Part shown: positions 1,463 to 26,865 of the stretch, in pieces
How the letters are laid out: each line of letters opens with the position of its first letter
How positions within the stretch are numbered: the stretch's first letter is position 1
Source of the DNA: Promethearchaeota archaeon
GTDB lineage: Archaea > Asgardarchaeota > Lokiarchaeia > Sigyniarchaeales > SOKP01
DNA length: 64,000 bases
Direction: 5' to 3'
NCBI GenBank assembly: GCA_016840085.1
Contig: JAEOTA010000055.1
Span: 1-64,000 of the forward strand
Notes under the pieces: generated by a model
The model's database searches: none
Seen by the model: only the letters and a program-made list of their open reading frames with translations
What the model was told of the DNA's origin: nothing
Translations under genes and position numbers: made by a program

Positions 1463-2692
1463 TTAGGTATGTAATAAGATCTTCGCATTCTTCTGCCATT
1501 CATTTACCATTTTCGAAGATGCTCCATTTATCTTAGACGATAACTCATCGGGATCTGCCTCTATTAGCTCGTTAATCGAAGTAATACCTTGTGCGTGTAA
1601 GTTTTCCATAGATCCTTTACCAATGCCCTTTACTTTTATTAGTGGTATTTCATCCATACCCCGCCCAGTATTTTCGGCTACTGGTTCAGATTCTTCGTAC
1701 AATGATTCAATTTCAAAGTCCAACCCTTTCGATTGCGGCATGTCAACTGTATCGGTGTCACTAACTCCAACTCCAGTAATATAGAATTCACATTCTTCAG
1801 GCGGAAGATCAGGTGCATCTACAATTACTGCCCTTCGCTTTAAAGAATTATTAGCTGAGAATCCCTTCGTCTTAAACATGACTCGGAAGTGACATCCGTG
1901 CGCCACAATATTTCCTCCTATCGCATCGTTGCCTGAAAACATTCCCATCATTCTTGTAGCGACTTGATTGGTAAGCAGCACCGCACAATTATAGGTTTCA
2001 GCGATTCGAGATAAGGCGTGAATCATTCCATTTAATACTGCTTGGCGGGGAGCAAGTTTCCCAATACCCACATATTCTGATCGGAGCAATGCCATGAGAC
2101 TATCAATAACAAGTAACCGAGCAACACGCGTCTTACAGATTGTTTCTGCTTTCTGGATCATCTGGGATTGATGGTCTGAAGAGTAAATTCTAGCATGGTA
2201 AATCTTAGATAACACCTCTTTGGGATTCAGTTCAAACCGTTTTGCGATACGCTTGATCTTCTCCTTTGAGAATGTATTTTCAGTATCAATATAGGCTACG
2301 CTTCCATTTAGTCCGCCTCTACTTTCTGGTAATTGAACAGTCACAGAAATTGTATGAGCTAATGCGGTCTTTCCCGACTTAAAAGGTCCATATACTTCGG
2401 TAAGCTTTCCGGTTTGAACGCCACCCCCTAAAATTCGATTAAGCTCAGAAGAGCCTGTTGTAATTAACTCTGTATTTTCGCTAATTTGAGACGCAGAGGT
2501 AAATTCGGTCATACCTAACGCGTTTCGAGCATTCCATATGAGCTTTTTGGCAGTTTTTTCTCCTAAGCCGTCAATATTTGCCACAATTAAATGGGGAGAC
2601 ATCGCTAGTGCTTCAGCGGTACTAATGCCGTTTTCCTGAAGGAGCTTGATTTGTCGTGAGTTGATTGATTTCACATCATTTAAATCTGACAT
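1463..2692 (-). CDS. radA: RadA/Rad51-family recombinase paralog with an extra C-terminal HhH domain
   Basis: N-terminal HhH, Walker A GPFKSGKT, YIDTENTF, Walker B LLVIDS, LLTNQV, IGGNIVAH; C-terminal VKGIGKGS HhH; GGTGA SD upstream. Confidence 0.9.
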   Translation of the reverse strand: MSDLNDVKSINSRQIKLLQENGISTAEALAMSPHLIVANIDGLGEKTAKKLIWNARNALGMTEFTSASQISENTELITTGSSELNRILGGGVQTGKLTEVYGPFKSGKTALAHTISVTVQLPESRGGLNGSVAYIDTENTFSKEKIKRIAKRFELNPKEVLSKIYHARIYSSDHQSQMIQKAETICKTRVARLLVIDSLMALLRSEYVGIGKLAPRQAVLNGMIHALSRIAETYNCAVLLTNQVATRMMGMFSGNDAIGGNIVAHGCHFRVMFKTKGFSANNSLKRRAVIVDAPDLPPEECEFYITGVGVSDTDTVDMPQSKGLDFEIESLYEESEPVAENTGRGMDEIPLIKVKGIGKGSMENLHAQGITSINELIEADPDELSSKINGASSKMVNEWQKNAKILLHT

Positions 2693-2752
2693 TGTTTTTT
2701 TCTTATCACCTATTTATGTGTAATTTGAATTGATATAGGATCATAATAAGAC

Positions 2753-2769
2753 TATTTAAAAGAAAAAAA
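2753..2769 (-). promoter_or_regulatory. T-rich BRE-position + TATA promoter motif upstream of radA
   Basis: Minus strand TTTTTTTCTTTTAAATA, ~60 nt before the ATG. Confidence 0.65.
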
Positions 2770-2818
2770 GAGAAGTAAAAAAGAGAAATACTATCTATTC
2801 TCCCAGATAAAAAATAGG

Positions 2819-3196
2819 TTATTCCTTAAGTATTAATTTTAGATTCTCAATATATTCTTTAGGAGAGATGCCATGTACTAATGCTTTATGAAGCATCCTA
2901 ATATTTACTTTTTCTATACCATTTTCTTCATAGATAGAAAGAAGATCTTTTTGAATTGCTTTTAAAATCTTTAACACAGAGAATTCAGAACGCTTATATT
3001 GACCAAAATATCCACCAAATGCGATAAATAAATTAGCTATAAGGTCAAGATCTTCTCTGGCAAATTTTTTATAACATTCAACGCACACAATTCCATAGTT
3101 AACTCCAGTTTGATAAAAAGTAGCTCTTTGTCTAATTTCTTTTCTACAGATAAAACACTTTATTTGATGATCATAATTTTGTGCTTTAGTTATCAT
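2819..3196 (-). CDS. Small Zn-finger protein
   Basis: CFIC...CVEC. Confidence 0.7.
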   Translation of the reverse strand: MITKAQNYDHQIKCFICRKEIRQRATFYQTGVNYGIVCVECYKKFAREDLDLIANLFIAFGGYFGQYKRSEFSVLKILKAIQKDLLSIYEENGIEKVNIRMLHKALVHGISPKEYIENLKLILKE

Positions 3197-3282: not shown

Positions 3283-3993
3283 TTAGAGCCATACAAATCC
3301 GGTATTCTCTATCTTATAGCACAGCTCCCATTGAGCATCTCCACAACTAATTTTCATCTTCTTTTTGTGACTATTGAACAATTTTAATAAATGAATGTGT
3401 AACACATCCAATCGACTATAGAGTTTATGAAGAAAAGGTCTTTGCTGTTCCGCTTTCATATCAAACGAGACTTCATGAAGCAGTATCAAATGAATCTTTT
3501 TTCTAATACAATATAACAATAACGGTGATAAAACCTCGTCATAAAATAAATCGATAATATTGGTACTATCTCTTATTTCTGAATGGGTAGAGAGTTCAAG
3601 TCGTAAATGATGGGAAATGTTGTCGATTACTATAAACTTTACATCAGGGGGTAATTCTGATTCAACATCTATAAAATGACGAAGTACTTGGGCTTGATCT
3701 CTATACGAATTAAAGCATTTTCCTTTTGGAATCACATATATATTACTTTCCAAATATTCTAGCTTTTCATTCCTTGCGTTAAAAAGTGAGTGTAATCGTT
3801 TTTTAGGGAATAATTCACTGGCTTGAACCCAGATACATGAGTGTTCATACGGTTTCTGTAAGGTAAGAAAATTACCTATTAAATAAAGGGCTAAGGTAGT
3901 CTTGCCTGTTCCTGACTCTCCTGAAATATTCACGATGATACTGCGAGAAATATGCGAAAATAACTCACTTAAGACTATAGGAGCTGAAATCAT
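3283..3993 (-). CDS. RadB/Rad51-paralog-like RecA-fold ATPase
   Basis: Walker A GESGTGKT, Walker B FIVIDNIS, no N-terminal HhH. Confidence 0.75.
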   Translation of the reverse strand: MISAPIVLSELFSHISRSIIVNISGESGTGKTTLALYLIGNFLTLQKPYEHSCIWVQASELFPKKRLHSLFNARNEKLEYLESNIYVIPKGKCFNSYRDQAQVLRHFIDVESELPPDVKFIVIDNISHHLRLELSTHSEIRDSTNIIDLFYDEVLSPLLLYCIRKKIHLILLHEVSFDMKAEQQRPFLHKLYSRLDVLHIHLLKLFNSHKKKMKISCGDAQWELCYKIENTGFVWL

Positions 3994-4350
3994 CTATTTC
4001 CCATCCAATAATTCAAGAATTTCTTCTTTTAGTCTATCTATTTCTTTTTCCCGCTGAGAAATAGGCTGTTCCTTATCTTTTTTTCCTGATGATGAAGCAT
4101 TAGTATTGAACAAGCCCTGAAGTATAAGTAGGGTTAATAATTCATTACTCTGAAAATTATATCCAGTAGCCTTTCCACTTAGGAATCTAAGTCCATTAGA
4201 GCCAAGACCGTGTTTTCTCAGCTTAAAAAACATAAAACCCGCAATAAATAAGACAATAATAATTATCCCAAATAGAGGATTTCGCTGATAAAACAATACG
4301 AATGCGACAATCAATATGAAATAACAAAACAATTTTGCCATATTATTCAC
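3994..4350 (-). CDS. Small membrane protein (2 TM, charged C-terminal helix)
   Basis: Two hydrophobic segments; abuts or overlaps both neighbours. Confidence 0.7.
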   Translation of the reverse strand: MNNMAKLFCYFILIVAFVLFYQRNPLFGIIIIVLFIAGFMFFKLRKHGLGSNGLRFLSGKATGYNFQSNELLTLLILQGLFNTNASSSGKKDKEQPISQREKEIDRLKEEILELLDGK

Positions 4351-5098
4351 CTGAAAATTTATCTATATCAGGAGCATTAACTTCCATATATTCACCATAT
4401 AATACCCCTACTCTTTTTTCTTCCCTATTTTTCCTTACATTTTTATAAATTGTATACCATAGCAGACAGATATATTTCAACACCACAAACACGACTCCGA
4501 TCAAGAAGTAATATATAAACTCAAGTGAGAAATCAATCGTAAATAAATCTACCAGTATCCATACCAATCCAAATGAAGAACATAATAAAATAACTTGAAA
4601 AAATGATTGTGAAGGATTTTTTTGAAACGTTACTGCTATATTTTTAAGATCTACTGTGGATGGTCTCACTCCTAATAATACCGACACACAGATTATCCCG
4701 CTCACTATCCTATAAAGCGGTTTTGCTGACATATCAAGGGCTATTTCAAGCAAAAAGAAAAATACAATTACCCCTACCAGTAAGGGAGCAATTCCAATTA
4801 ATAATGATTGAATAAATGAGACTTTTTGTGGTCTCTCTAGCGCAACTGATCCATGTGGATCTACCCTTCCAGTCATTTTATTTCTGTAATTTACCTCCAC
4901 TCTTTTGACTGGCACACCGGTAATAAGACATAATGTAGCATGCGCAGCTTCATGAATAGCAACTCCAATAAATCCAAGGACACTAAACGCGGTTTTATAT
5001 TTACCCTTGGTCTGATGATATAGCAATTCAAGGCCATACCCTACTACGAATGCTATTGGCAACCAAAAAAAGGTGAATACGAGGACTTTTTCAAACAT
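4343..5098 (-). CDS. M50/M50B-like intramembrane metalloprotease
   Basis: HEAAH within a TM helix, IAP motif, PSxxD, multiple TM segments. Confidence 0.7.
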   Translation of the reverse strand: MFEKVLVFTFFWLPIAFVVGYGLELLYHQTKGKYKTAFSVLGFIGVAIHEAAHATLCLITGVPVKRVEVNYRNKMTGRVDPHGSVALERPQKVSFIQSLLIGIAPLLVGVIVFFFLLEIALDMSAKPLYRIVSGIICVSVLLGVRPSTVDLKNIAVTFQKNPSQSFFQVILLCSSFGLVWILVDLFTIDFSLEFIYYFLIGVVFVVLKYICLLWYTIYKNVRKNREEKRVGVLYGEYMEVNAPDIDKFSGE

Positions 5099-5134: not shown

Positions 5135-5235
5135 CCAAAATTTCCTATCCTAAAGTTGTGATCTTATAATCCGTAGACGATGTATATATAATGCTTAATA
5201 ATATAAGATATTATACTTAGAATTCATAAACTAAA

Positions 5236-5438
5236 GGGAACTATTGAGTATACTGGAAATAGATTACCACTGTTTAAACTGGTCGAGGATTCTCCCGCAA
5301 CCAGATCATGGTGGGGTGATGCACGAAACGAAAAAATTGATACATTTTGAAAATTCAGTTTTCGTGAAAGTATGGTAGAACGCTTTTCCTCATAGATCCT
5401 GATCCAGAGGATAATATTTAAAAGGCAAATAGGTTCCC
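5236..5438 (+). ncRNA. Candidate structured 5' leader RNA of the atypical TFB gene
   Basis: Closing stem GGGAACTATT 5236-5245 / AATAGGTTCCC 5428-5438 plus several internal stems. Confidence 0.4.
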
Positions 5439-5467
5439 ATATATTTCTTAGGAAACTATACAAAATA

Positions 5468-6697
5468 GTGACCAAGGTTATGGCTTCATATAAAACACAA
5501 GAATTTGAGACCGGATTAGTAGGGCTTTCATCCCTAAAATGTGATATGTGTGGTTCGGAAGATATTGTTGAAGATATGGGCTCCTATATCTGTAGAGATT
5601 GTGGGATCGTGCTTGAGATCCGAAAATTGCAGTATGATAGGCCCTATAATACTGATATCATTCATCATTCTCCGCATGTAGGGGCTACCCAGGTAGGAAC
5701 CATTCGGGAGCGGCTTAGTTCTAAGCATTCCGTACAGCTCCAACGAATAAATAAAAAACAATTGGAACAGTCTAACTATGAGAATGTGAAACGAAAGATT
5801 GGGAAAAAGATTTCCGATCTGTTTACGAAACTTGAATTACATGACTCTGGAGCGTCCTTAAAGCAGTATATTTATACACAGTGTCTAAGAGTATATAATA
5901 GTTTTAGACCAGGAACGAAGTATAGAAGTGTTGAGAAGTTAGTTCCAGTGGTGATGTACTATTGTTTAAAGCTTAGAAGTATTGCGCGACCAGAGACCGA
6001 TTTTATAGATACTAGTGAAATAACCAAAAAGGAATTTAATCATTTTAAGATCCAAGTAAAGCATTTTCTTCCCAAGTATAATGAGTATAATCGGCAGATG
6101 GTTATTCTTCAAAAAATTAGTTATATCCAAGCCGAATTTAATTTGGATAGGGCATTTAATCTATTCACTAGGAAAGTCCTATATAAACTGTGGGGACTTA
6201 TCAAAAATACAAAAGATGATGTCGTAGCAGGGCTCTGTGCATCGATTTCGGCTCTATGCGCCTATCAAGATATATTAAATGTGAATTCCATTTGCAATCT
6301 GCTGGGTATCAGGATGAGTACCATTCAAAGCCAAGTGAAAAAGAATTTCTTTACTCGATTCAGAGTCGAGGGATTTGTAAGTCTGGTAAAATCTTCCGAC
6401 TTATTGGTAAAAATTATGGAAAAGTTAGGAATACTGGAAGGAGCAGAAGAACCTTGTGATATTGTGGAGATAAAGCTGGGACACGCAAAACGTATATTTA
6501 ACAATAATGATTCAATTGAATACTATCTATTTGCGATAAGAGATGAGGATAATAACGTAATGCTTGCCAAGTTAGACGTGTTTAAGCCATATCAGAGATT
6601 TGAGACGGTTGATAGTGTTGAAGTCAGTAACTTGCCACAATTCAATATGGTTTTCAGAACGTATTCAAAAGGCAAAGGTCCACCCTTTAAAAGTTGA
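5468..6697 (+). CDS. tfb: Atypical transcription factor IIB (TFB) paralog
   Basis: TFIIB Zn ribbon CDMC...CRDCGIVL, two cyclin-like repeats, divergent C-terminal HTH, extra ~90-aa tail; start GTG 5468 or ATG 5480. Confidence 0.75.
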   Translation: MTKVMASYKTQEFETGLVGLSSLKCDMCGSEDIVEDMGSYICRDCGIVLEIRKLQYDRPYNTDIIHHSPHVGATQVGTIRERLSSKHSVQLQRINKKQLEQSNYENVKRKIGKKISDLFTKLELHDSGASLKQYIYTQCLRVYNSFRPGTKYRSVEKLVPVVMYYCLKLRSIARPETDFIDTSEITKKEFNHFKIQVKHFLPKYNEYNRQMVILQKISYIQAEFNLDRAFNLFTRKVLYKLWGLIKNTKDDVVAGLCASISALCAYQDILNVNSICNLLGIRMSTIQSQVKKNFFTRFRVEGFVSLVKSSDLLVKIMEKLGILEGAEEPCDIVEIKLGHAKRIFNNNDSIEYYLFAIRDEDNNVMLAKLDVFKPYQRFETVDSVEVSNLPQFNMVFRTYSKGKGPPFKS

Positions 6698-6786
6698 TAA
6701 TTTTTATAGTTCAAATATCTACCTTTCTAATTACTTCTTTTTTCTCTTTCTCTTTTCTTATTGTTAACTATAGGTGGACAATCTGG

Positions 6787-6804
6787 TTTTTTTATTTAAA
6801 TATA
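6787..6804 (+). promoter_or_regulatory. T-rich promoter motif
   Basis: TTTTTTTATTTAAATATA, ~46 nt before the ATG at 6850. Confidence 0.65.
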
Positions 6805-6849
6805 TCCACACCTAGAGTATTGTAATTCATACCTTAAGGATGATTTATC

Positions 6850-9780
6850 ATGAACCTAAAAAAGTCGATTTTTACTATCATTATAGTATTATTATTTGTA
6901 CGTTCTATTATCTGTATTGCACCCCAGAAGAACAATTATTCCGAAGCTATGCAATATAACGATGTGAACAGCTCTCTTAAGACCTCCTCTACGACAAACG
7001 GGGAAATCATTCAGGAGGTCTTCTCTGCTAAAAACAGTCAATTCCAAAGCGAAGGATATTATACTCAAATGTTTGATTCTTCACTTCAAGCGACATATTA
7101 TGGGCTATATGTTTTAGATACGATTGGGAAATTAGGGGATATTAACACGACTGAAGTTCTCACTCATATCATGTCGTTTTATGATCCTGATTCAAAGTTG
7201 TTTATGGATAACTATTCCTATAGATATCTTGATACCGACTTTTCGCAAGTATATTATCCGTTAAGCACGCAATTAGAAGTGAATTGTTATGCGGTACTTT
7301 CATTAGACTTACTGGACTCTCTTAATTTGATCGATACTTCAGAGATGATCTCGTATCTATGGGAGTGTTATAATACTGATACTTCGGGTTTCATCGGGCA
7401 AAAATATGACACAAGTTTGGAAGAAGGATTTAAAATTTCGACCATGGATAATACTTATTTTGCGGTGTATGCCTTGGATCTTCTAATGGATGATTGGTCT
7501 CAACATGGTACTGAAAGAGATGAAATTGTCCAATTTATAAATGATCTACAGATATCCCAAGGATCAGGGTGGATGGTAGGGGGGTTTCTTAATGATATGA
7601 ATTCCTCATTAGATAGTATTAATCCCTTATTTGAGCCAAATCTCCTCAGCTCTTATTACTGCATTAAGACTTTGAAGCTATTTGGCATGGAAGATAGTAT
7701 TAACAAGCCTAACTTTCACTCCTTTTTAGATACATTATATGATTCTACCAACTATTATTTTAGAATATCGCAAATGGATTATGGAATTGAATATGCTAAT
7801 ATTGTCGCTACTGCACTTGGATTGGAGCTTTCCGATATTACTTCGTATCCAAATATCAACCGAGAGAATGTGATTACATTTTTATTAAATAATCGCAATT
7901 CGTGGGGAATCTGGGATTCATCGACCTTACTTGATCATCATGAGCTAATTGATACTTTTCAAATTGTGAGAGTGTTAAATAATACCGAAGAAATTTCACG
8001 ATTAAATGAAGGAGATAAATCTCAAATAAGCGGTGCGGTATCTAAATATTATAGCTACAATGGATTTGCGCCCTTATCAGAAGATTATATGACCATGGAT
8101 TTAATACATAGCATCGTATCTTCTTATAAATTATATGATAAGCTCTCAGATCTGGATATCAGCCAATTATATAGTGATATTACCTCTTCCTATAATCCCT
8201 TCGGTTCATGTCGATTTGTAGAATATATTACAAAAGGGAAGTCATTTACTGGCCTTCGCTCACGACCGTATGAATTCTATACTACAGGATACAAGAATTA
8301 TGTGGATGAGATTAACGTGCTTATTTCCCATAAAGCTACCTTTCATGCACTTACATCTTTACGCGAGATATTTAAACTTGATGATTTTTCCCTAAGCTAT
8401 GATCTTCATGACTTATTGGACGATATCATTGCTTCCCAGTTTCTAAATGACTCTTATTATAACAGTTTTGGGGGATTTACCTATTGGGAGCCCTATAATC
8501 CAATATTTTCTGAGTTCTTAAGCAAGAATGTATATTTCTTTTATACCTATTATGCCGTTCGAAACATGGAACTTTTAGGGAACTATCTCGGGTTAGGAGA
8601 TCTTACTCAACTATCCTTTGATATAGATGCCCTTTATTGTTTTATTGATAGAAAAATAGTAGAATCTGCTACTTATGTATATCTTGATCCTGGATATACT
8701 TCAAATGTAGAAGATATCTTGGAACAGACCTATTATATGATTTACATCCTTAAAGCGTTGGACTTATATAATAAGAATACTCAGAAGACCAAGAATTATG
8801 TGTTAGATCATCTGGATTATTCTAATATTAAAAATATCTATTATTCCTATAAAATCTCAGAGATTTTGGACCTAAACATAGAATTTAATTCGATACCTAT
8901 CCAAAATTTAATGAAAGCGATATATTCAGAGGATTTATACGAATTTTATCTAACTTCAGCCCATCAGGTAATTGATCATGATATTTTATATTGGATATGC
9001 GATTTGGCAAAAAATAGTGAAGTGATTATTAATATAGAATATCCAGAAGTTGTCTCATTAGGAGAATTTATACCCTTTACTGCGAATGTTCAAAATCTAA
9101 TCATCGATGATTTTGGCTCCTACATTACCCTAAAATGCATACATGAGAAATTAGGCACAATTTTGTTTGATAAGCTAGAAGGTAATGAATTTACCAAAGA
9201 TGTGTATGTCCCTATAGAAAAGGATTACTATCCTGAAATCGCTTTAAGGTTAGAGGCATATGAGGGATTTAGAAAACTTAGTGAACAAAATATTACCGTA
9301 TATACCGACTATAGCATAACTCATCACCTGACAACCGAGGTGATAAATAGTTCTGTATATCTTGAAATAAATGGAACGTATAAAACGAGTCTAAAAGAGT
9401 ATAACACGTCATACGGACAGGCATATTCGCTTGTCTATGGAGAATCGTTTCTGGAAGAAAAATTCTTCTATCGCCACGATTTCGAAAATTATAGTTTATT
9501 TTCCATGAGCTACGATGTTAATTTTAAATTCCGATATACGTTTGAAATTTATCTTTCAGACGGGATAAATAACGAATGGATATGTCTTGGCAATTATACC
9601 TTTTATAAAGGAGAAATCAAACCCGATGATGAGGTGCCTGACGATCCTTTTGATGGACATAATCCAAATTATGAGGATGAACTTTTACAAACGATTCCTG
9701 TTATCACTATATTAACCTTAATCCCTGGAAGTGTTATAGTACTTACTACGGTGAGAACTAAAAAATTAAAGAAACGATAG
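6850..9780 (+). CDS. Large secreted/membrane-anchored protein with prenyltransferase/squalene-cyclase-like alpha-alpha toroid repeats
   Basis: N-terminal hydrophobic segment, repeated GGF...TY(Y/F)AV..L.LL units, C-terminal TM and basic tail. Confidence 0.65.
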   Translation: MNLKKSIFTIIIVLLFVRSIICIAPQKNNYSEAMQYNDVNSSLKTSSTTNGEIIQEVFSAKNSQFQSEGYYTQMFDSSLQATYYGLYVLDTIGKLGDINTTEVLTHIMSFYDPDSKLFMDNYSYRYLDTDFSQVYYPLSTQLEVNCYAVLSLDLLDSLNLIDTSEMISYLWECYNTDTSGFIGQKYDTSLEEGFKISTMDNTYFAVYALDLLMDDWSQHGTERDEIVQFINDLQISQGSGWMVGGFLNDMNSSLDSINPLFEPNLLSSYYCIKTLKLFGMEDSINKPNFHSFLDTLYDSTNYYFRISQMDYGIEYANIVATALGLELSDITSYPNINRENVITFLLNNRNSWGIWDSSTLLDHHELIDTFQIVRVLNNTEEISRLNEGDKSQISGAVSKYYSYNGFAPLSEDYMTMDLIHSIVSSYKLYDKLSDLDISQLYSDITSSYNPFGSCRFVEYITKGKSFTGLRSRPYEFYTTGYKNYVDEINVLISHKATFHALTSLREIFKLDDFSLSYDLHDLLDDIIASQFLNDSYYNSFGGFTYWEPYNPIFSEFLSKNVYFFYTYYAVRNMELLGNYLGLGDLTQLSFDIDALYCFIDRKIVESATYVYLDPGYTSNVEDILEQTYYMIYILKALDLYNKNTQKTKNYVLDHLDYSNIKNIYYSYKISEILDLNIEFNSIPIQNLMKAIYSEDLYEFYLTSAHQVIDHDILYWICDLAKNSEVIINIEYPEVVSLGEFIPFTANVQNLIIDDFGSYITLKCIHEKLGTILFDKLEGNEFTKDVYVPIEKDYYPEIALRLEAYEGFRKLSEQNITVYTDYSITHHLTTEVINSSVYLEINGTYKTSLKEYNTSYGQAYSLVYGESFLEEKFFYRHDFENYSLFSMSYDVNFKFRYTFEIYLSDGINNEWICLGNYTFYKGEIKPDDEVPDDPFDGHNPNYEDELLQTIPVITILTLIPGSVIVLTTVRTKKLKKR

Positions 9781-9787
9781 TATGTGA

Positions 9788-19141: not shown

Positions 19142-19165
19142 TTCGATACTTATTGATTAAAAGGT

Positions 19166-19285
19166 GGCTCCTGCCAGCAAGACGCAAAAGAGCGTCGTAA
19201 AATACAATAGGGGGAGGAGGGCGAAATTTGAGTGTAAGAATTTACACTACCAAAAGACAAAAATCCAGGGTGTCTGACAGGAGCC
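19166..19285 (-). ncRNA. Candidate ~120-nt structured small RNA
   Basis: 12-bp terminal stem (G.U wobble only on the minus strand), two internal hairpins, C-rich single-stranded segment, U-tract after the stem, upstream promoter motif at 19340-19353. Confidence 0.55.
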
Positions 19286-19339
19286 TTTTTTAAGTTGTTG
19301 AATTACCATTTTTGTCCTATTTTATAATACTATTGGATA

Positions 19340-19353
19340 CTTATAAATAAAAA
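19340..19353 (-). promoter_or_regulatory. T-rich promoter motif pointing at the candidate sRNA
   Basis: Minus strand TTTTTATTTATAAG. Confidence 0.5.
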
Positions 19354-19364
19354 TTTTTGTATAG

Positions 19365-19380
19365 TTTTTTTCTTTATAAA
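19365..19380 (+). promoter_or_regulatory. T-rich promoter motif of the membrane-complex operon
   Basis: TTTTTTTCTTTATAAA; spacing favours ATG 19406 as a leaderless start. Confidence 0.65.
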
Positions 19381-19390
19381 GTGAGGGTAT

Positions 19391-21187
19391 ATGTATATTC
19401 TACCTATGACAGAACATGAAAGGTTAGGTGATAGTTCTTTAGATTTAACTAACTTTGAGACCAAAGAAGAAGATAAAGATCCTAAAAATACTGAGACTCC
19501 TTTCAATGCTAGTGCTGCAGTGCGAAAAGGTATTACAACGTTAAAATATGTGGGACCGGTTACTGCTGAACGATTACTTCTACGAGGATTTGACTCGATT
19601 GAGAAGATTGCTCATAGTACGGTGGCTCAAGTATCTGAAGTTGAGGGGATCGGAGAGAAATCAGCTCAGAAGATTATCGAAGCTGCGAAAGCATATAGTA
19701 ATCTTAAGACCCTAAATGAATATTCTACTGTTGATCACTCTGAACTACCTCACTATGAGGATAAAATAGCTGAATATGACGAACAAGAAAAAAACTATGA
19801 AAATAAAGCAGAGGATTTAGAGTATGATATTGAGCCTGTAGACGATATGAAGGAATTTGAACCGTGGTTTGATGATAAGTATAAAATGTCACGCCTAGGA
19901 AAAAGTTATCCTCCTCCTAATAGAGTAAGTTCCACAATAGAACCTGTGGTGCCTACCACTGTTCATGAAGAGAGTAGATCCCATGAAGTTATTGAAGAAG
20001 ATAACCTCACTAAGGGTCAAGAAACGATTAGAGAACTTGTTGGAATTCACTCTGAAAAAATAAAAGCTAATGAAAGGCAGGAGCTTCTTACTCGAGTACA
20101 ATCAGAATTAAAATCCTTAGAATATCAAATCCTTCCTAAATCTGGAACATTATTTACTGCCGTTGATGTAATTGCAGTAAAACAGCTCAAAGTGAGTGAG
20201 ATATTGGGATTATTGCTTATTCTCCCGATCAAGCTTAGTTCCTTCACAGGAACTCTAAAAATATCTCAGAATCATATAGATTATAAGGGTAATGTAAAAA
20301 ATGATGAGCTTTCAATTAAGAAGGTACTCACTACCTATCTTACCAAATTATCTACGATACGTCAAGTTATTGTAAAGGACTTAATGAATTCAGGGCAATT
20401 TTCTTGGATGCTTCAACAATTTTTAAAACTTGATATATCAGTTGAGAAATCAGTTATCTTTAAGAAAGTTTTATTTCGAAATGGTCCATTACAATATAAA
20501 ATATTGCTTGAACCCTTATTAGTATGTCCCAGTACTGTTGGTTTCTTAGATAAAGTTATCCCCTTTGCCTATCATAAATCTAGCAATATTCATATCATCG
20601 GGATATCTCAGCTCTCACAATTATTTGAATTTTTAGAGCGTAAGTATTCTCTCATAGAAGATTTTTCTGACAAAGAGGACTTAGCAGTTGAATATGATAA
20701 TGCACGAGATGATTTTATTGAAAAGATACGCTTTTTTTCTATTCCTATCTTTTGTTTTGGGTTTGTATCTCTGCTGGTCATGCTTTTTCAGGGATTTTTT
20801 CTGCTAGAGTTTATAAAAACACTAGGATATTGTATCATTAGCGTGTATTTAGGTGTCATAACCTTAATATATATTAGATATCTAAGAATTAAATCTACAT
20901 TGTTCGAGAAAGCATCCTTGCCGTATTATAGCCGTACTTTAGATGACTCAACCCTTATTTTAATCAGCGAACAGCTTTCCACGGAACTGATGGCTCAGTT
21001 TTCCTATGAATGTGTTGATGCCACTGTTGAAACTCAAGTTATTTCCCAATTAGAAGAAGCACATGCCGAAGATCTGTATACTAAATCTAAAATCAGAGAA
21101 GTAGTGCATAACGACAAATTTTTTGAGGGACAGTCAGCCAAGAAAGAAAAAATTATTCGAAAATACAGTTCATTTTTAGAGGAGTAG
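19391..21187 (+). CDS. Membrane-anchored (HhH)2 DNA-binding protein
   Basis: LKYVGPVTAERL / VEGIGEKSAQKI HhH pair, acidic linker, VDVIAVK segment, two C-proximal TM helices; likely start 19406. Confidence 0.7.
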   Translation: MYILPMTEHERLGDSSLDLTNFETKEEDKDPKNTETPFNASAAVRKGITTLKYVGPVTAERLLLRGFDSIEKIAHSTVAQVSEVEGIGEKSAQKIIEAAKAYSNLKTLNEYSTVDHSELPHYEDKIAEYDEQEKNYENKAEDLEYDIEPVDDMKEFEPWFDDKYKMSRLGKSYPPPNRVSSTIEPVVPTTVHEESRSHEVIEEDNLTKGQETIRELVGIHSEKIKANERQELLTRVQSELKSLEYQILPKSGTLFTAVDVIAVKQLKVSEILGLLLILPIKLSSFTGTLKISQNHIDYKGNVKNDELSIKKVLTTYLTKLSTIRQVIVKDLMNSGQFSWMLQQFLKLDISVEKSVIFKKVLFRNGPLQYKILLEPLLVCPSTVGFLDKVIPFAYHKSSNIHIIGISQLSQLFEFLERKYSLIEDFSDKEDLAVEYDNARDDFIEKIRFFSIPIFCFGFVSLLVMLFQGFFLLEFIKTLGYCIISVYLGVITLIYIRYLRIKSTLFEKASLPYYSRTLDDSTLILISEQLSTELMAQFSYECVDATVETQVISQLEEAHAEDLYTKSKIREVVHNDKFFEGQSAKKEKIIRKYSSFLEE

Positions 21188-21190
21188 GCT

Positions 21191-21841
21191 ATGACTCAAA
21201 AAGATGCGTTTAAGAAGTGTTTTGTCATAGGGCTTATATTATTCTTAGCATCATTATTCTTGGAATGGTATTCCTTTTACATATATGGTAATTCCCATGA
21301 GCTTATAGTTTCAGGACATTTTACCATGGTCTTCGGATGGTCGATAAAGACAACCCAACCGAACACCCTTGCTAACTTATATAAACAATATGAAATTCCT
21401 GAATCATTTTTCATTGCTATTATTTCAATTGTCATTATTATTATTGCGATGTATGAGGTACTTTTCAGAGATATTGATACGGACAAAAAACGCGAAAATA
21501 TTACAACATCGGCATGGATTATTATCTGTGTATGGGCACTCCTCATACTATATTTTTTTATATTTCCCTTCTTATTTTTTATTCCTAAAGATCTCAGCTT
21601 TCCCTTCGCATATTATGAGGATGTGCAGACTCATTCCTTTCATTTTTGTGCGATCGGTCCTGGTTATATAACACAGATTATTGCATTTATTTTAACTACT
21701 CCTTATGTTGCGTTTCATTATCAAACTATACGACGGTTTGAAAAGGAAGAAAAAACCGTCGAGATGACCATATTGAATGCTCAAGAGCCACTGGATTTAG
21801 ATAAATTACTTGCCGAAGAGGAGGTAAAGTTAAAATCATAA
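21191..21841 (+). CDS. 4-TM membrane protein
   Basis: Four hydrophobic segments; GGAG SD; operonic spacing. Confidence 0.7.
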   Translation: MTQKDAFKKCFVIGLILFLASLFLEWYSFYIYGNSHELIVSGHFTMVFGWSIKTTQPNTLANLYKQYEIPESFFIAIISIVIIIIAMYEVLFRDIDTDKKRENITTSAWIIICVWALLILYFFIFPFLFFIPKDLSFPFAYYEDVQTHSFHFCAIGPGYITQIIAFILTTPYVAFHYQTIRRFEKEEKTVEMTILNAQEPLDLDKLLAEEEVKLKS

Positions 21842-21858
21842 ATCCTACGCTGTTAAGC

Positions 21859-22698
21859 ATGAAGCTGAAAAATTTGATTTTAGCATGCACGCGGACCCGT
21901 AATTACAAGAAATTAGCGGTGGTGGGGATGATTCTTACCAGTAATAAACTCAACGAGTTCGGTATTAAGTTAGGAATGAGACCGTGTAATAAGAATAAAG
22001 GTGAGAAAATTTTTGAGTATATGATGATGATAAATGAGGTATTTTTGAAGAATCTCAAGATCCCGATTTTTCCTGATGAGATCCTCTATTCACTACAAGA
22101 ATGTGAGCAGGTATTTTTAAAAACACGGGGAGAAATTCCGCGTGAATATGTGAAACGAATTTTTGCTAATTATTTCGAATTAACTAAAATAGATATTCCA
22201 AATTTACATGAAAAACTACAATTCGAAGATCTTACTATGACTACTCCAGGTAATTTATTTTCATTTGTATCCTCTATGGCGCAGAAAAAAAGAACTAATG
22301 ACGATTTCCTTCGACCCTTATTATTGCAAAAGATTCAACAACAAGAGACTCAATTGCAAAAAGAATATGCGACAAGAATGGATGTCCATAAATTGGAGTC
22401 AGCAATTCATTTAAAGCATATGAAAGATAATCTTACCAACCATAAAAGTAAGAAAATCACCGTTCAGGGCACTCTCAAGGATAATATTTCTTATCAACGT
22501 TCACAAACCCATATCTTTTCCTATTTCATCTTTGGAGTAGGGCTGTTATTCTTCCTATATGGCGTATTACTGTTATTACAGATGATACTGCAACCCAGTA
22601 CAATAGATATGTTTGGACTGTTAATTCCAATATGCTTTGTGCCTTGTATTGTGCTCTATGTACTCTATAAAAAATATAATAAAGAGGGTGGCAATTAG
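21859..22698 (+). CDS. Protein with a soluble N-terminal domain and two C-terminal TM helices
   Basis: Hydropathy pattern; operonic spacing. Confidence 0.7.
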   Translation: MKLKNLILACTRTRNYKKLAVVGMILTSNKLNEFGIKLGMRPCNKNKGEKIFEYMMMINEVFLKNLKIPIFPDEILYSLQECEQVFLKTRGEIPREYVKRIFANYFELTKIDIPNLHEKLQFEDLTMTTPGNLFSFVSSMAQKKRTNDDFLRPLLLQKIQQQETQLQKEYATRMDVHKLESAIHLKHMKDNLTNHKSKKITVQGTLKDNISYQRSQTHIFSYFIFGVGLLFFLYGVLLLLQMILQPSTIDMFGLLIPICFVPCIVLYVLYKKYNKEGGN

Positions 22699-22701
22699 GA
22701 T

Positions 22702-25700
22702 ATGATAGAAGCTGAATTCTCAAAGAAGAAATATATCATGGAAAAGATACAGGATGATAAAGCGAAAAAGGATTATCTTGATATTTGGAGAACCGTCCCT
22801 CAGCTAAAGGATATTAATATCAGATTTTCGAGTATCAGAGCTTTATCACTTATACTCTTAGTGATATTTATCATGATTATAACATATAGTGCAGGTGTAG
22901 ATCAATTTATTGCGTTTAGCCTAGGAATACTATTCTTACTTTTCTTTATCGTTGCTTTTTATGATCAATGCTATACTTTTGTAAATCTCATTTCATTTGC
23001 CTTTAGAAAATCTTTCACGTTTAATCCTTTTTCCCACATTACTTTTTGGCAGAGAAAAGGAGAGCAATCTACCTTATTTATTACCAATAAAGATGATTTA
23101 ACTCATATTGCCTTACAACTATTTAAAGTAGAAGTCATCCCTGAAAATGTACATGAAACTACCAATACCTATATTAAAGCATTAAGTAATCTTGGAAAAC
23201 TAATACCGTTCACCTATCAGGTTGTTCATATTCCCGTGATTCACTTTGCTAAAGATATTAATCGGCAAGTTCAGTCGGGATCGCAAGAATCCTATAAGAC
23301 CTATATTTATTTTTGTATTCATAGTAGTAATCACGGGTTTCTGAGACAATTTAAAATAGATCTCTTACAAAATAAAATAAATGAATATCAATCCATCTTT
23401 CGAAATTTATTCGCCTCAAATTTTCATCATTTTCAAATCAGATTACTTTCAGGTAATGAGTTAATAAATGGCATCCGGACATTTGTCATGAAAGAAGATA
23501 TTCTTAACAAACCTTCTGAACATCCCCCTAGTACCCACAACAACGCCATAGGAGCATTTAAAATTTTATGTATCGCGTCTATGGTACTTTATATAGATAT
23601 ATTTCTTACTATTTGTGGTCTGTTTTTCTATGTTATTCCCATTAATTTTGGGGTGGTATTTTGTATCATCGGATTATGGTGGCGAGGCTTGTTATTTCAC
23701 AGTTCTCAGATGTTATTTCTTGACAAAACAGAGTGTAAGATTATATATCCCTTTTCAGATATTAGATTTTATTTTTATAACCGAATTCCTAACAGTCTAT
23801 TTCTTCATATCCAGAATCAGATGTTGGTAAATATTAAGATCAATAATTTATATGAGTATCGTCCTTTCCTTATTGCCCATGCAAATAAATTCACTCAATC
23901 TGCAATGATTCAAAAGGTGCCATTTGCCTATACAGTGTGTAATACCCCCATAAACTTGGACCAATTCGAGAAAAAAGAAATCTTTAAGCATCTTAATATT
24001 AAGACGCAGCATTGGTTTGATTATGAACGTAATTATATTTGGGATTATTATTCCAAGGAAAAGATCAGGAGAAAAGCTAAGGAGGTTGTCAAAGAGGGTG
24101 AGAAATGGGCCACTATGCGCTCTGGTATATGGAAGTCCATGCTCACCTTAGCAGTCTCAAATCGTATGTATACAAGACGAGTAAAAGTACGAGATATGCT
24201 TCATTTAGAACTTGAATTGAAGAATAAAAATAGCGCAATCGCCCATGCCTTTGTATCCAGCTTTAATGGGTTACGACTCAAGCCCCTTCAAACACGAAAG
24301 TTGATCTCCGGATATTTATGCTCTACTCTTAAGACTTATACATATCGATTAAGCGGTACACACTTACAATATTTAATATTACAGGGAAAGACCTTAAATA
24401 AGCTGGTTGAAATTGCAGACGACTATAAAAAAGGAGTAGAGACACAAATAGGGGCAGAATTTAATACTCCTTTACATCTGGAAAATTTTATTACTCTCGG
24501 CCATACCATTAATACAGAGATTCTAGAAGCGGAAGTTCCTTTTGGGCTTATGTTAGACCAGCTTAAGCAGCTATTAATCGTAAATGGAGCCTTTAATGAC
24601 AGAGAACATGCGTCCATGAAAATTGTTGCGGAATTAATACAAGCAAAGGTTCCTTCCCTAGTATTTGATTTCTCAGGCAGATGGTCGAAACTGATATCTT
24701 ATTTTGAAGGAACCCAATTCGAAAAAGAGCTGGTATACTTCAAGTTGGGGAGCTCTTTTAGTCTCGATCCCCTTCGATCAGACATCCCTTATGATCTTAA
24801 CAATAGCAAATATCAAGAGTTCTTATTTGACGTGTATGGGTTAGCGTTTGGAAAAAATAAAAGAACTGTTGAAATGTTTAGGAATACCATTTTAAAGAAT
24901 CCTGAAATGGATCTTCCTTCCCTTAATTTAGAGATCAGGACTCAAAGTGATTGGGAGAGACGACCGCCAGATCCTGTCCTAGGATCAATGTTTTCTGATC
25001 TCACTCAAGAGGATTTAACCTTATGCTTGAGTGCCACAACTTCTAAAATAAAAGCGTGTGATTTTATCAAGACAGATAAGACGGTAATCGTAGATCTCTC
25101 GATTACAAACGAGTTTAGGACTCAGTTATTTTTTGCATTCTTAATTCTTTCTAAGATTATTCACTATATTACCGTCAATGGTGAGTATCATCCAAAAATT
25201 ATCATCATGCCTACCATTGATATATTTTTCGATTCTCGATATATAACTACACAATCCCATTATGGAAAGATCGATAAATTCTTAGGGACTTTACAGCAAA
25301 AAGGGTTTGGGTTGATATGTTCGGCAAATCAAGTGCATTCTTTACACCAGAACGTGTGTACCTATTTCCCTAACATTATGGCATTTAAAGCTGTAGATAA
25401 TCGTGATATTATGCTCTTAAAGAATTTAATGAACCTGCAAGAACTGGTAGGAACCGGCTATTATAGTTCCAAACGGAATAATACCTACCAAATTGAGTAT
25501 CTTAAAAATCTTAATAAGTGCAGAGCATTAATTAAAAGAGGAGATATCTTTCAAGTCTTTCCCGTGCTATTAGAATATGAGGATATTATAAAGAAAAGAC
25601 CACTTCCCTATGAAGAGATTATTCCGTTTATGAGGGGGCAGGGGTATGACTTACGGGATGCCGAAAAGAAGCTTATGGAACATGCCCATCAGACTCTTTT

Positions 25701-26487
25701 TGAGATTGATTTGGGCAATTATATGGGTTATCTTGATGAAGTGAGGCACTTCTTAGAAGCTATAAGAAAAATTGAAAGAATAGGGAATGTATATAAGACA
25801 AAATTAAAAGAAGAATTATTGAAATTTATTACCCCAAAGGCTAAACAGAGAGGGGTGAAAAAAGAACATATCACTAAATTGCGTGATATAGTACTCGAAA
25901 TTCTTATTAAACATCGCTATTTGGTAGAAGATCATCCCCGAAAAGCGAGCGGTTCGCAGTCCATCCGTACCTCATATCGTGTTGGAGATCAATATGATAT
26001 TGCGTTGCAAGATTATTTTCAGGCACAGAAAAGACTTCATGGTGACATACACGTGGAGGTCATGGAAAAAGAAGCCGAGATGCCCGCTCCTTTTCAGCAC
26101 AGGAATTTTATTATCCAGAAAGGACGTCTGAAAAGGGCATTGCAGCGGGAATTATCAGATTTCTATCATGAGTTATATTTGATTTGGGAAGCACTGAAAC
26201 TCGGTCAGCACGAAAAAGCATTAAAAATAGAACATGATATAATTAGAAGATATCTTATCAAAGTATATACGCACTTTCATAATATAGACGATCTCGTTAC
26301 AAACAATCAATTGGATACATTTTACAATTTTCTTTGTTCCTTTGAGAACTTTCCCTTTACTAAGAAAGATCTACAAGATCATGCCAACACTTTTCGAATC
26401 ATAACATTCGAAAGGGATGATCCAGAGCAGTTATACTATACCATTAAAAAATTTTTTGAAGATATTCAAATCTTTATTTATAGTTAA
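22702..26487 (+). CDS. Large membrane-anchored VirB4/HerA-like protein with degenerate Walker motifs
   Basis: ITLGHTI...LLIVNG, SLVFDFSGRW, FSLDPL, TVIVDLS, KGFGLICSANQ in HerA/VirB4 order; no GKS/T and no DE. Confidence 0.6.
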   Translation: MIEAEFSKKKYIMEKIQDDKAKKDYLDIWRTVPQLKDINIRFSSIRALSLILLVIFIMIITYSAGVDQFIAFSLGILFLLFFIVAFYDQCYTFVNLISFAFRKSFTFNPFSHITFWQRKGEQSTLFITNKDDLTHIALQLFKVEVIPENVHETTNTYIKALSNLGKLIPFTYQVVHIPVIHFAKDINRQVQSGSQESYKTYIYFCIHSSNHGFLRQFKIDLLQNKINEYQSIFRNLFASNFHHFQIRLLSGNELINGIRTFVMKEDILNKPSEHPPSTHNNAIGAFKILCIASMVLYIDIFLTICGLFFYVIPINFGVVFCIIGLWWRGLLFHSSQMLFLDKTECKIIYPFSDIRFYFYNRIPNSLFLHIQNQMLVNIKINNLYEYRPFLIAHANKFTQSAMIQKVPFAYTVCNTPINLDQFEKKEIFKHLNIKTQHWFDYERNYIWDYYSKEKIRRKAKEVVKEGEKWATMRSGIWKSMLTLAVSNRMYTRRVKVRDMLHLELELKNKNSAIAHAFVSSFNGLRLKPLQTRKLISGYLCSTLKTYTYRLSGTHLQYLILQGKTLNKLVEIADDYKKGVETQIGAEFNTPLHLENFITLGHTINTEILEAEVPFGLMLDQLKQLLIVNGAFNDREHASMKIVAELIQAKVPSLVFDFSGRWSKLISYFEGTQFEKELVYFKLGSSFSLDPLRSDIPYDLNNSKYQEFLFDVYGLAFGKNKRTVEMFRNTILKNPEMDLPSLNLEIRTQSDWERRPPDPVLGSMFSDLTQEDLTLCLSATTSKIKACDFIKTDKTVIVDLSITNEFRTQLFFAFLILSKIIHYITVNGEYHPKIIIMPTIDIFFDSRYITTQSHYGKIDKFLGTLQQKGFGLICSANQVHSLHQNVCTYFPNIMAFKAVDNRDIMLLKNLMNLQELVGTGYYSSKRNNTYQIEYLKNLNKCRALIKRGDIFQVFPVLLEYEDIIKKRPLPYEEIIPFMRGQGYDLRDAEKKLMEHAHQTLFEIDLGNYMGYLDEVRHFLEAIRKIERIGNVYKTKLKEELLKFITPKAKQRGVKKEHITKLRDIVLEILIKHRYLVEDHPRKASGSQSIRTSYRVGDQYDIALQDYFQAQKRLHGDIHVEVMEKEAEMPAPFQHRNFIIQKGRLKRALQRELSDFYHELYLIWEALKLGQHEKALKIEHDIIRRYLIKVYTHFHNIDDLVTNNQLDTFYNFLCSFENFPFTKKDLQDHANTFRIITFERDDPEQLYYTIKKFFEDIQIFIYS

Positions 26488-26499
26488 AGAGGATATAAT

Positions 26500-26865
26500 A
26501 TGGAAAAGCAGAAATCACAAGATGAGATGTTATCTAATTCATTAGAGAAAGTAATTTTTAATAAAGAAGAGTTGGAAAATTTAAAACGGAATATAGATCG
26601 TCTTAGCAAAAGTCAGTGTAAGCCTATCGAATTAAAAAGGCAAATACTGGATTACCGAGCTGATTTATTAGAGAGAATACAACGTGTATTTCAGTTCTAT
26701 CACAATTCTTTTATTACAAAATCAGATAGTAAAGAAAAACAGAAAGTATACACTGAACTTAAAGAAAAAAATGAACTATTGGAAAAAAAAGATAAAATAT
26801 TTGAAGATCTTGGTAAAAAAATCTCTACCATCTGTCAAAAAATAAGAATCCAATTACAGAATTAA
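26500..26865 (+). CDS. Small coiled-coil protein
   Basis: K/E/L-rich heptads; GAGGA SD. Confidence 0.65.
   Translation: MEKQKSQDEMLSNSLEKVIFNKEELENLKRNIDRLSKSQCKPIELKRQILDYRADLLERIQRVFQFYHNSFITKSDSKEKQKVYTELKEKNELLEKKDKIFEDLGKKISTICQKIRIQLQN

Follow-up and report, generated by a model that had tools for sequence, protein, structure and literature searches.

A conserved gene cluster of Asgard archaea joins a VirB4-like membrane platform to its own set of recombination genes

The first 64,000 nucleotides of contig JAEOTA010000055.1 of a Promethearchaeota archaeon (assembly GCA_016840085.1; G000:C50:1-64000 in our numbering of genomes, G, and contigs, C), hereafter the window, carry a cluster of about 19 genes at positions 1463-28885. 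These genes encode a VirB4-like protein within a membrane operon, a second RadA with further recombination proteins, additional membrane and surface proteins, and a TFB-like protein (Table 1). They form a conserved, co-inherited unit in which a VirB4-type membrane platform is linked with recombination genes of its own. The five genes of the membrane operon occupy the plus strand from 19391 to 26865, while on the minus strand the genes for the protease-like protein, a protein with two transmembrane (TM) helices and the RadB/KaiC-like ATPase form one operon. GC content is ~0.33 over the window, with no compositional break. An initial annotation, made from the letters of the sequence, had described the five-gene membrane operon, a large surface protein, a membrane protease and a TFB-like gene; listing of open reading frames (ORFs) and family scans located all of its items where it had placed them.

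Table 1. Genes of the cluster and the adjoining transposase gene. Counts of loci refer to 45 related species-level loci centred on the Hel308-like helicase gene. aa, amino acids; HhH, helix-hairpin-helix; TM, transmembrane.
Feature	Position (strand)	Length (aa)	Characteristics	Linkage
IS4-like DDE transposase	71-1378 (+)			At contig start, abuts cluster
RadA2 (RadA paralogue)	1463-2692 (-)	409	N-terminal HhH, Rad51 core, extra C-terminal HhH	
Small Zn-ribbon protein	2819-3196 (-)	125	Two CxxC pairs; no family match	Syntenic orthologues in G008, G192, G210
RadB/KaiC-like RecA-fold ATPase	3283-3993 (-)	236	Walker A GESGTGKT	
Small membrane protein	3994-4350 (-)	118	Two N-terminal TM helices (hydropathy); no family match	Translationally coupled to neighbours; orthologues hold same position
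Intramembrane zinc metalloprotease-like protein	4343-5098 (-)	251	~5 TM helices; HExxH, APS..D	
Divergent TFB-like protein	5468-6697 (+)	409	Zn ribbon, weak first cyclin repeat	
Large surface protein	6850-9780 (+)	976	N-terminal signal/anchor, alpha/alpha-toroid domain, C-terminal TM anchor	Syntenic in 27/45 loci
Soluble protein	9825-10436 (+)	203	No family match	Stop overlaps start of Hef-like gene; syntenic in 29/45 loci
Hef/FANCM-like helicase paralogue	10423-12546 (+)	707		
DUF1922 Zn-ribbon protein	12546-13079 (+)	177	Two CxxC pairs; Pfam E 2.2e-7	Syntenic in 31/45 loci
Small protein	13435-13731 (-)	98		Own promoter-motif copy at 13827 (-); orthologues in 22/45 loci
Beta-helix (NosD-like) surface protein	13912-15906 (-)		Pfam Beta_helix, NosD	Between Hef-like and Hel308-like units
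Hel308-like Ski2-type helicase	16200-18656 (-)	818	CxC...CxH (SWIM-type) insert; Pfam archaeal helicase domain 4	
Zn-finger protein	18769-19029 (-)	86	CPLC and His cluster	First gene of Hel308-like transcription unit
HhH membrane protein	19391-21187 (+)	598	N-terminal (HhH)2, uncharacterised middle domain, C-terminal TM hairpin	Membrane operon
Polytopic membrane protein	21191-21841 (+)	216	3-4 TM helices (hydropathy); no family match	Membrane operon; syntenic in 29/45 loci
Membrane protein	21859-22698 (+)	279	Soluble N-domain, C-terminal TM hairpin	Membrane operon; syntenic in 29/45 loci
VirB4-like protein	22702-26487 (+)	1261	See text	Membrane operon
Coiled-coil protein	26500-26865 (+)	121	Recognisable in closer relatives only	Last in membrane operon; 11/45 loci
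DUF998 membrane protein	27023-28885 (+)	620	Soluble N-domain, C-terminal multi-TM part; Pfam E 1.8e-10	Edge of unit

The largest protein of the membrane operon, 1261 aa in length, had no match in Pfam, NCBIfam, PADLOC or PHROGs, nor in a phmmer search of the PDB. Because the sequence libraries gave no match, we modelled it in two halves with AlphaFold2, using alignments of homologues from related genomes. The model of the N-terminal half (residues 96-600) had a predicted local distance difference test score (pLDDT) of 78 and a predicted template modelling score of 0.79. Its best Foldseek match had an E-value of 3.5e-10 and 14 matches had E <= 0.001; the top ten, all that were displayed of these, were TrwK/VirB4 of plasmid R388 or an R388 complex containing it, and the first unrelated structure listed (rank 15) had E 0.12. 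Alignment with residues 12-403 of TrwK in VIA-align gave a Z-score of 27.5 with a root mean square deviation of 4.3 Å over 328 aligned residues, compared to a Z-score of 8.2 for the next unrelated structure. The C-terminal half (residues 500-1261, pLDDT 76) matched HerA (4d2i, E 1.8e-9), TrwB (1e9s, E 2.2e-7) and VirB4 (4ag5, E 5.8e-7) and also DndH-C, and ESM features of the protein pointed to DUF87/TrwB/CedB. The fold of these models marks the protein as a homologue of VirB4 in which N- and C-domain are both present. Its predicted architecture comprises a TM hairpin, part 1 of the N-domain, a second TM hairpin, part 2 of the N-domain, a HerA/FtsK-type C-domain with a degenerate P-loop, and a tail of helices and a winged helix.

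The N-domain consists of two similar modules, separated by the second TM hairpin. The latter module, with its hairpin, is encoded in distant Asgard families by a gene of its own (~280 aa) directly upstream of a gene for a soluble C-domain protein (~520 aa). We also considered the upstream module of the VirB4-like gene as a NurA-like protein and rejected this, since its fold is that of the VirB4 N-domain. The window's family of genomes has NGxxxxRE where the P-loop would be and other families have GGSxxER or GGGTNDDRR, so that an arginine stands in for the Walker A lysine in all family members that we examined. Few proteins belong to the family: when 1.84 billion representative sequences were searched with a profile, 150 members were retrieved at E <= 1e-30, and among the 112 long representatives at this threshold none contained GxxxxGK[ST]. 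The Walker B region reads DDxE or DDxD after a strand in distant members and IPxIDxFFD in the window's family.

Further VirB4-like genes were seen outside the window. Paralogues cut at contig ends lie at G000:C20:30544-31962, C69:195430-196848 and C86:3-380, and the genome probably holds two or three VirB4-like genes. At locus L073 of a related genome (G008:C76), positions 5435-16374 encode a second VirB4-like protein (1279 aa), followed by a DUF87/HerA-type protein (631 aa) and by a 1673-aa protein with a TFIIB repeat and a helix-turn-helix domain, which is another pairing of VirB4-like and TFB-like genes.

The recombination set is headed by RadA2. This protein matches Pfam Rad51 with 237-238 bits and the NCBIfam RadA model NF003301 with 324 bits (cut-off 259); it has an HHH_5 match at residues 350-399 and an intact Walker A motif, GPFKSGKT. 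The canonical RadA of the same genome is encoded on C78 (313 bits) and is 44% identical to RadA2. In a maximum-likelihood tree the canonical copies of families f1 and f21 form one clade (91/98) and the cluster-linked copies form two others (100/99 and 91/96), the order of the three clades being not settled. As a member of a separate clade, RadA2 is not orthologous to canonical archaeal RadA. Matsuo et al. 2025 describe two RadA clades in several Asgard groups (PMC12722695), which agrees with the position of RadA2 and the cluster-linked RadAs of other families outside the canonical clade; in the parts of the paper that were read, neither genomic context nor a link to a VirB4-like membrane module comes up.

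The other members of the set are a small ATPase and two helicases. The RadB/KaiC-like ATPase matches NCBIfam RadB with E 3.5e-10, below the cut-off, and Pfam AAA_22, AAA_25 and KaiC weakly; equivalent small RecA-fold genes occur in the clusters of G075, G038 and G047. The Hef-like helicase, whose gene is translationally coupled to that of the DUF1922 protein, reaches 568 bits on the NCBIfam Hef model (cut-off 610), covers only model positions 7-526 of 781 and has no Pfam match to the ERCC4 nuclease domain. A full Hef with nuclease is encoded on C83 (772-aa frame, 852 bits) and a third Hef-like helicase on C47. With NCBIfam Hel308-type models, the Hel308-like helicase scores 340-417 bits, against cut-offs of 887-1216. 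It is the best Hel308-type match in the genome (332 bits versus a cut-off of 887), and canonical Hel308 was not found in four genomes of the window's family, this one included; Hel308 was likewise missed in 13 of 15 Lokiarchaeota genomes by Batista et al. 2024 (PMC10946056). Two genomes of other families, G038 and G043, carry both the canonical type (906 and 444+403 bits, respectively) and the cluster-linked type (369 and 352 bits). Thus, the second-copy recombination toolkit proposed in the initial annotation holds for RadA and Hef, and separate canonical copies of radA, hef and tfb exist elsewhere in the genome, but no canonical hel308 was found there.

That these genes belong together is borne out by their linkage across Asgard genomes. 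In nine genomes of three genera, the order is kept from the TFB-like gene through those for the surface protein, the 203-aa protein, the Hef-like helicase, the DUF1922 protein, the Hel308-like helicase, the HhH protein, the TM proteins and the VirB4-like protein to the DUF998 gene; in several of the nine, the block from RadA2 to the protease abuts this order. Full 10-kb flanks on both sides are available for 19 of the 45 loci. The VirB4-like operon lies on one side of the Hel308-like gene in 16 of these 19, and the Hef-like and DUF1922 genes lie on the other side, also in 16.

The linkage reaches far beyond these genera. With a C-domain profile, members of the VirB4-like family turned up in 130 of 301 genomes, representing 48 of 70 genera, and at least eight other Asgard families have VirB4-like, Hel308-like and RadA-paralogue genes next to one another. 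VirB4-like genes stand beside Hel308-like and/or RadA-paralogue genes in f9, f11, f14, f17, f21 and f28, and beside Hef-like genes in f14 and f18. Three genomes of f21 (G038, G047 and G070) have an operon for a RadA paralogue, an M28-type membrane protein, a two-TM protein, the N-module protein and the C-domain protein, adjoined by a Hel308-like helicase gene and a RadB-like gene. The same neighbours recur in other orders in f14 (G043 and G118), f17 (G048), f11 (G007) and f18 (G041). One tightly coupled operon in f28 (G112) and f9 (G075 and G103) comprises the genes for a RadA paralogue, an XPD-like helicase, TM proteins, the VirB4-like protein, a Hel308-like helicase and two small RecA-fold ATPases.

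Where the cluster is missing, its genes are missing together. Genomes G138 and G144 (98-99% complete) belong to the same genus as the cluster-bearing G210 and G282 and have neither a VirB4-like nor a TFB-like gene. They also lack a RadA2-type gene (the best match, 43-44% identical, is of the canonical type), a Hel308-like gene (the only Ski2-type helicase is an 893-aa frame, at 36-39%) and a Hef paralogue (the best match, 42-44% identical, is of the 790-aa canonical type), and they retain canonical RadA and Hef. The joint loss of five genes indicates that the module is dispensable and behaves as one unit. In another relative (98% complete), a decaying cluster at G204:C17:129935-141991 contains a 189-aa VirB4-like remnant and two fragments of the Hel308-like gene (residues 1-166 and 704-809) beside intact surface-protein and TFB-like genes; RadA2 is absent from this genome.

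These patterns bear on the simplest alternative, that housekeeping repair genes have come to lie beside membrane genes by chance. The Hel308-like gene is the only Hel308-type helicase found in the window's family, which such an explanation would accommodate. However, canonical RadA and Hef are encoded elsewhere in the genome, the linkage recurs in at least eight other families, five genes are lost jointly, and a common promoter motif is conserved. Joint loss and cross-family linkage already contradict chance neighbourhood, which we consider very improbable.

The common promoter motif claimed in the initial annotation is a T-run fused to a TATA box, and it precedes most transcription units of the cluster. 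The divergent promoter region at 19127-19379 contains two copies of TTTTTTCTTTATA[TA], one per strand, and further motif copies lie at ~2767(-), 3232(-), 5134(-), 6788(+), 13827(-) and 26959(+). There are 24 copies of TTTTTTCTTTATA[TA] in the 4.68 Mb of the genome, five of them within 13.8-31.2 kb of the window (expected 0.16), and TTTTTT[ACT]ATTTAAATAT has six copies genome-wide, two of them in the window. Seven of the 30 strict copies genome-wide thus fall into 0.7% of the genome, all seven 25-111 nucleotides (nt) upstream of cluster start codons. A loose pattern has 253 occurrences in the genome (0.54 per 10 kb), eight of them within 2.7-27 kb of the window and none beyond 31.2 kb. The possibility that the shared motif is a generic promoter was rejected, since plain TATA cores are not enriched, in contrast to the ~30-50-fold enrichment of the T-run/TATA form.

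The motif is also conserved in position. Across the 45 orthologous loci, the density of the loose motif is five times that of the G000 genome, which served as the only background. The motif lies upstream of the orthologous Zn-finger/helicase unit in 29 of 29 cases, of the surface protein gene in 12 of 16, of the DUF998 gene in 11 of 20, of RadA2 in 4 of 4 and of the protease unit in 5 of 7; no operon-internal gene and no TFB-like gene was preceded by it. The genes of the cluster are probably co-regulated.

A candidate regulator is the TFB-like protein. It matches the Pfam TFIIB Zn ribbon with E 3e-5 (23.9 bits versus a cut-off of 29) and NCBIfam TFIIB with E 8.7e-5, and its four cysteines are invariant. 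In a profile search of the PDB, eight of the nine listed matches, including the top seven, were TFIIB (E 0.008-0.21); these are weak matches to cyclin repeat 1. PF00382 misses the protein while finding at least ten other TFB genes in the genome. With both cyclin repeats present in at least ten genes, G000 has an unusually large set of TFB paralogues. Upstream of the TFB-like gene, an 83-aa 'ORF' of low complexity (5224-5475) is conserved (43% over 77 aa) at G000:C9:66021-66251, where it again precedes a TFB-like paralogue, and is better explained as a conserved leader or regulatory region than as a gene.

Three further observations concern the motif and the divergent promoters. A T-run/TATA motif lies ~75 nt upstream of each of the truncated VirB4-like paralogues on C20 and C69. 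The strict motif is present on both strands at 31054-31205, between two syntenic genes outside the unit (29912-31054 and 31205-32362) that encode a 380-aa protein with a weak PP-loop/HUP match and an uncharacterised 385-aa protein; these two genes may belong to the same regulon. Between the divergent promoters lies a stem-closed element of ~120 nt (19166-19285) with no Rfam match at gathering thresholds, and no Rfam family was detected anywhere in the window.

Beside the VirB4-like protein, the membrane operon encodes a DNA-binding candidate. The HhH protein matches Pfam HHH_5 (E 2.4e-13), its N-terminus resembles the RadA N-domain, and its TM helices lie at residues 448-498; PDB profile matches (RadA, Topo V) are confined to the HhH part. 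A PD-(D/E)xK nuclease in the middle domain is unsupported; the match of a single member to AF1548-like_C (E 0.041) we regard as noise. A role as surface DNA receptor was rejected because the HhH part is predicted to be cytoplasmic. The 279-aa membrane protein had neither a family match nor a usable PDB profile match.

On the minus strand, the protein with about five TM helices is, from its sequence, probably an intramembrane metalloprotease. Residues H49, E50, H53, P146, S147 and D150 are invariant in an alignment of nine homologues. ESM features pointed to Peptidase_M50B with a score of 0.85, which is a lead only; there was no above-threshold Pfam match, and a PDB profile search of the family yielded no usable one. 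Homologues adjoin VirB4-like or RadA genes in G171, G008, G147 and G043. We had also considered this protein as a VirB6/CedA candidate, which its invariant HExxH led us to reject.

The large surface protein matches Pfam Prenyltrans (E 3.6e-13) and has predicted TM helices at residues 6-24 and 948-966. The second surface protein, with a beta-helix, is a lineage-specific insertion and stands outside the conserved unit: its gene is missing at that position in ten of ten syntenic genomes, and weak paralogues occur in only 4 of the 45 loci. The family is multi-copy in the genome (C75, C73, C6, C46, C18, C71 and C47).

From 32.7 kb on, the one readable flank of the cluster is ordinary metabolism, with genes for an MBL-fold hydrolase, an old-yellow-enzyme type reductase, a thioesterase, an esterase, an acyl-CoA synthetase, a PIG-L protein and a ferredoxin-type protein. 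Within this flank, eukaryote-like domains typical of Asgard genomes are found in a small protein with two SH3 domains (35240-35590, plus strand) and in an FG-GAP repeat protein (38551-39711, plus strand). At the other end, the first 19 residues of the IS4-like transposase are found again where contigs C89 and C2 end, and C74 carries a copy of 55-63% identity in three pieces. Probably this multi-copy insertion sequence broke the assembly at the contig start.

An integrated conjugative or other mobile element, or its remnant, equipped with its own recombination genes, might be expected to look similar in part: a VirB4 homologue is a signature of conjugative systems, the transposase gene abuts the cluster, and extra VirB4-like copies occur in varied contexts. 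Yet the contig has no tRNA gene and, as stated in the initial annotation, no integrase (no match to the tyrosine integrase family PF00589). Nor did we find att-like repeats, only short imperfect ones, or a shift in GC content, so that a plain integrated element is not borne out. Order and neighbours are the same across genera, the P-loop is degenerate, and the family is spread over Asgard families, in two of which (f9 and f28) it is part of the tightly coupled operon. None of the 45 loci examined had an att- or integrase-bounded or circular form. The cluster is chromosomal and not an integrated element; we give the mobile-element explanation next to no probability.

Asgard archaea at large share this chromosomal module, and the cluster is the dispersed, expanded form that it takes in Promethearchaeia (Lokiarchaeia-type). 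Tentatively, and by analogy, we favour a role in which chromosomal DNA is imported or exchanged between cells to serve recombinational repair, and we assign to it a probability a little short of even. We do so because the nearest described systems, Ced of Sulfolobales (CedA, A1, A2, B, D, E) and Ted of Thermoproteales (TedA, B, C), import DNA for this purpose and are type IV secretion systems (T4SS) that have been domesticated (PMC9905601, PMC11868833). A dedicated homologous-recombination set would be anchored at the cytoplasmic face of the membrane on a T4SS-derived platform, with the VirB4-like ring and its TM partners acting as a static dock or portal and not as a motor. The HhH protein may bind DNA that arrives at or passes the membrane. 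The Hel308-like and Hef-like helicases (XPD-like in other Asgard families) would pull and unwind the DNA and thereby supply the motor, and RadA2 would be loaded onto it, assisted by the RadB-like ATPase, to exchange strands with the chromosome. Joint activation of the set could be the task of the extended T-run/TATA promoter together with the TFB-like protein, and the putative intramembrane protease may release or remodel a tethered component.

Several observations weigh against import or exchange. Searches of Pfam, NCBIfam, PADLOC and PHROGs and PDB profile searches recognised neither a VirB6/CedA/TedA-like channel nor a VirB2/CedA1-like pilin, a relaxase or a coupling protein. The 216-aa protein and the TM hairpins of the VirB4-like protein are candidates for the channel, with no Pfam, NCBIfam or PDB profile match, and the 118-aa two-TM protein is a candidate for the pilin. 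Since the Walker A lysine is missing family-wide, translocation drive as in VirB4/CedB cannot be assumed. Hydropathy and charge predict a cytoplasmic location for all large domains of the VirB4-like, HhH and 279-aa proteins. RadA2 does not adjoin the other genes everywhere, since 160 kb separate it from them in G210 and it has a different contig in G147, and the promoter pattern was defined from the cluster's own sites. The initial annotation had proposed that membrane DNA transfer is coupled to strand exchange and had named a VirB4/HerA-like protein in the membrane operon. Of this, the VirB4 fold and the placing of VirB4 homologue and membrane proteins in one conserved unit with the recombination set stood up.

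Some of these observations suit the main rival, an intracellular, membrane-anchored repair or recombination complex in which DNA does not cross the membrane. Here, the inactive VirB4-like ring and the HhH protein would hold chromosomal DNA for processing by the paralogous RadA and the helicases; this DNA could be stalled forks, broken ends or chromosome dimers at division, as with FtsK. A P-loop degenerate in every VirB4-like member, soluble domains that are all predicted to be cytoplasmic and the lack of channel or pilin homologues in Pfam, NCBIfam and PDB profile searches fit such tethering. N-terminal TM helices combined with a HerA/FtsK-type domain and a winged-helix-like tail also recall FtsK. 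However, the N-domain is specifically that of VirB4, a hallmark of machines that transfer DNA or protein across the envelope, and a large surface protein is syntenic and shares the common promoter. Furthermore, the module is dispensable in near-complete genomes, which suits accessory exchange better than core chromosome maintenance. We therefore regard tethering as unlikely, though it is the strongest competitor of import or exchange; defence, a mobile element and chance neighbourhood are less likely.

HerA-Sir2, HerA-DUF4297 and Hachiman-type systems are defence systems that use such parts. The cluster might accordingly provide defence against or exclusion of mobile elements, sensing or degrading incoming DNA at the membrane with a HerA/VirB4-like scaffold and superfamily 2 helicases. 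Matches of the C-half model to defence-type HerA complexes and a score of 151 bits for the Hel308-like helicase on HamB models agree with this. So do the multiple VirB4-like copies of several genomes and the fast divergence of the membrane-operon proteins, which are 31-44% identical within the genus compared to 75% for the helicase. Arguing the other way, no nuclease, Sir2, TIR or other effector domain was found, and the membrane proteins had no match in PADLOC or PHROGs. The partner recombinases keep intact ATPase motifs, and the cluster occupies a fixed chromosomal position with ordinary metabolic flanks and not a variable island. Defence is thus a quite unlikely function of the cluster.

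A stronger form of import or exchange is a dedicated, co-regulated system for exchange between cells, in which an ATP-dead, T4SS-derived portal passes DNA to its own RadA paralogue and helicases; this we hold to be possible and rather doubtful. If true, the archaeal lineage that gave rise to eukaryotes would possess a programmed, sex-like pathway of recombination, and this would bear on when regular recombination between cells arose relative to eukaryogenesis. A link to eukaryotic recombination programmes, as raised in the initial annotation, is weak: Matsuo et al. 2025 place the duplication into Rad51 and Dmc1 later than the separation from every sampled Asgard RadA clade (PMC12722695). In any case, the cluster is a concrete and testable set of ~19 genes with a conserved promoter and a candidate dedicated transcription factor. 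Sister genomes without the set are natural knockouts for comparing recombination rates, and the long retention of a VirB4-family protein without its catalytic lysine raises the question of what role a non-hydrolysing T4SS ring has. Full-text literature searches on Asgard DNA uptake and VirB4-type proteins returned no published description of the cluster; all that has been published is that a second RadA clade exists (PMC12722695).

Among known systems, bacterial natural transformation (ComEC, ComFA, DprA/RecA, ComM or RadA/Sms) resembles the cluster in its proposed logic, with a portal, a pulling helicase, recombinase loading, branch-migration helicases and one dedicated regulator. No component is homologous, and the HhH part is cytoplasmic, unlike that of ComEA, so this is analogy only. 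The archaeal HerA-NurA-Mre11-Rad50 operon for end resection likewise encodes a HerA-superfamily ring protein together with recombination functions that feed RadA. In contrast to it, the cluster is without NurA, Mre11 and Rad50, and its ring protein is membrane-anchored, has a VirB4-type N-domain and is without the catalytic lysine.

Closer is VirB4/TrwK of bacterial conjugative T4SS (R388; PDB 7O42 and 8RTB), which shares the arrangement of a VirB4-specific N-domain before a RecA-like domain of HerA/FtsK type; the Asgard protein has its TM hairpins where VirB3 sits or is fused in T4SS. The Asgard protein differs by its degenerate P-loop, the second TM hairpin within the N-domain and a C-terminal tail of ~150 residues. 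Moreover, VirB6, B8, B10, a relaxase and a coupling protein were not recognised in the cluster, and its chromosomal context is conserved.

Ced and Ted differ from the Asgard cluster in several respects. CedB/TedB is regarded as a motor, whereas the Asgard family has an arginine for the Walker A lysine. Homologues of CedA/TedA (VirB6-like) and CedA1/TedC (VirB2-like) were not recognised in the cluster, sequence similarity is undetectable and the relation is visible at the fold level only. Ted loci carry rad50 and herA-like genes (PMC9905601); the Asgard partners are instead a RadA paralogue, RadB-like ATPases and Hel308-, Hef- and XPD-like helicases. Nevertheless, both the known systems and the Asgard cluster are chromosomal and combine a membrane-associated VirB4-family protein with small TM proteins, and recombination genes are also found at Ted loci. 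In Sulfolobales, one half of the VirB4 N-domain is matched by CedB and the other by CedD (PMC11868833); the separate module genes of distant Asgard families recall this, and in the window's protein a TM hairpin lies between the halves. Finally, TFB3 governs Ced jointly with Ups and the HerA operon (PMC9905601), and thus Ced, too, is regulated together with repair genes by an alternative TFB.

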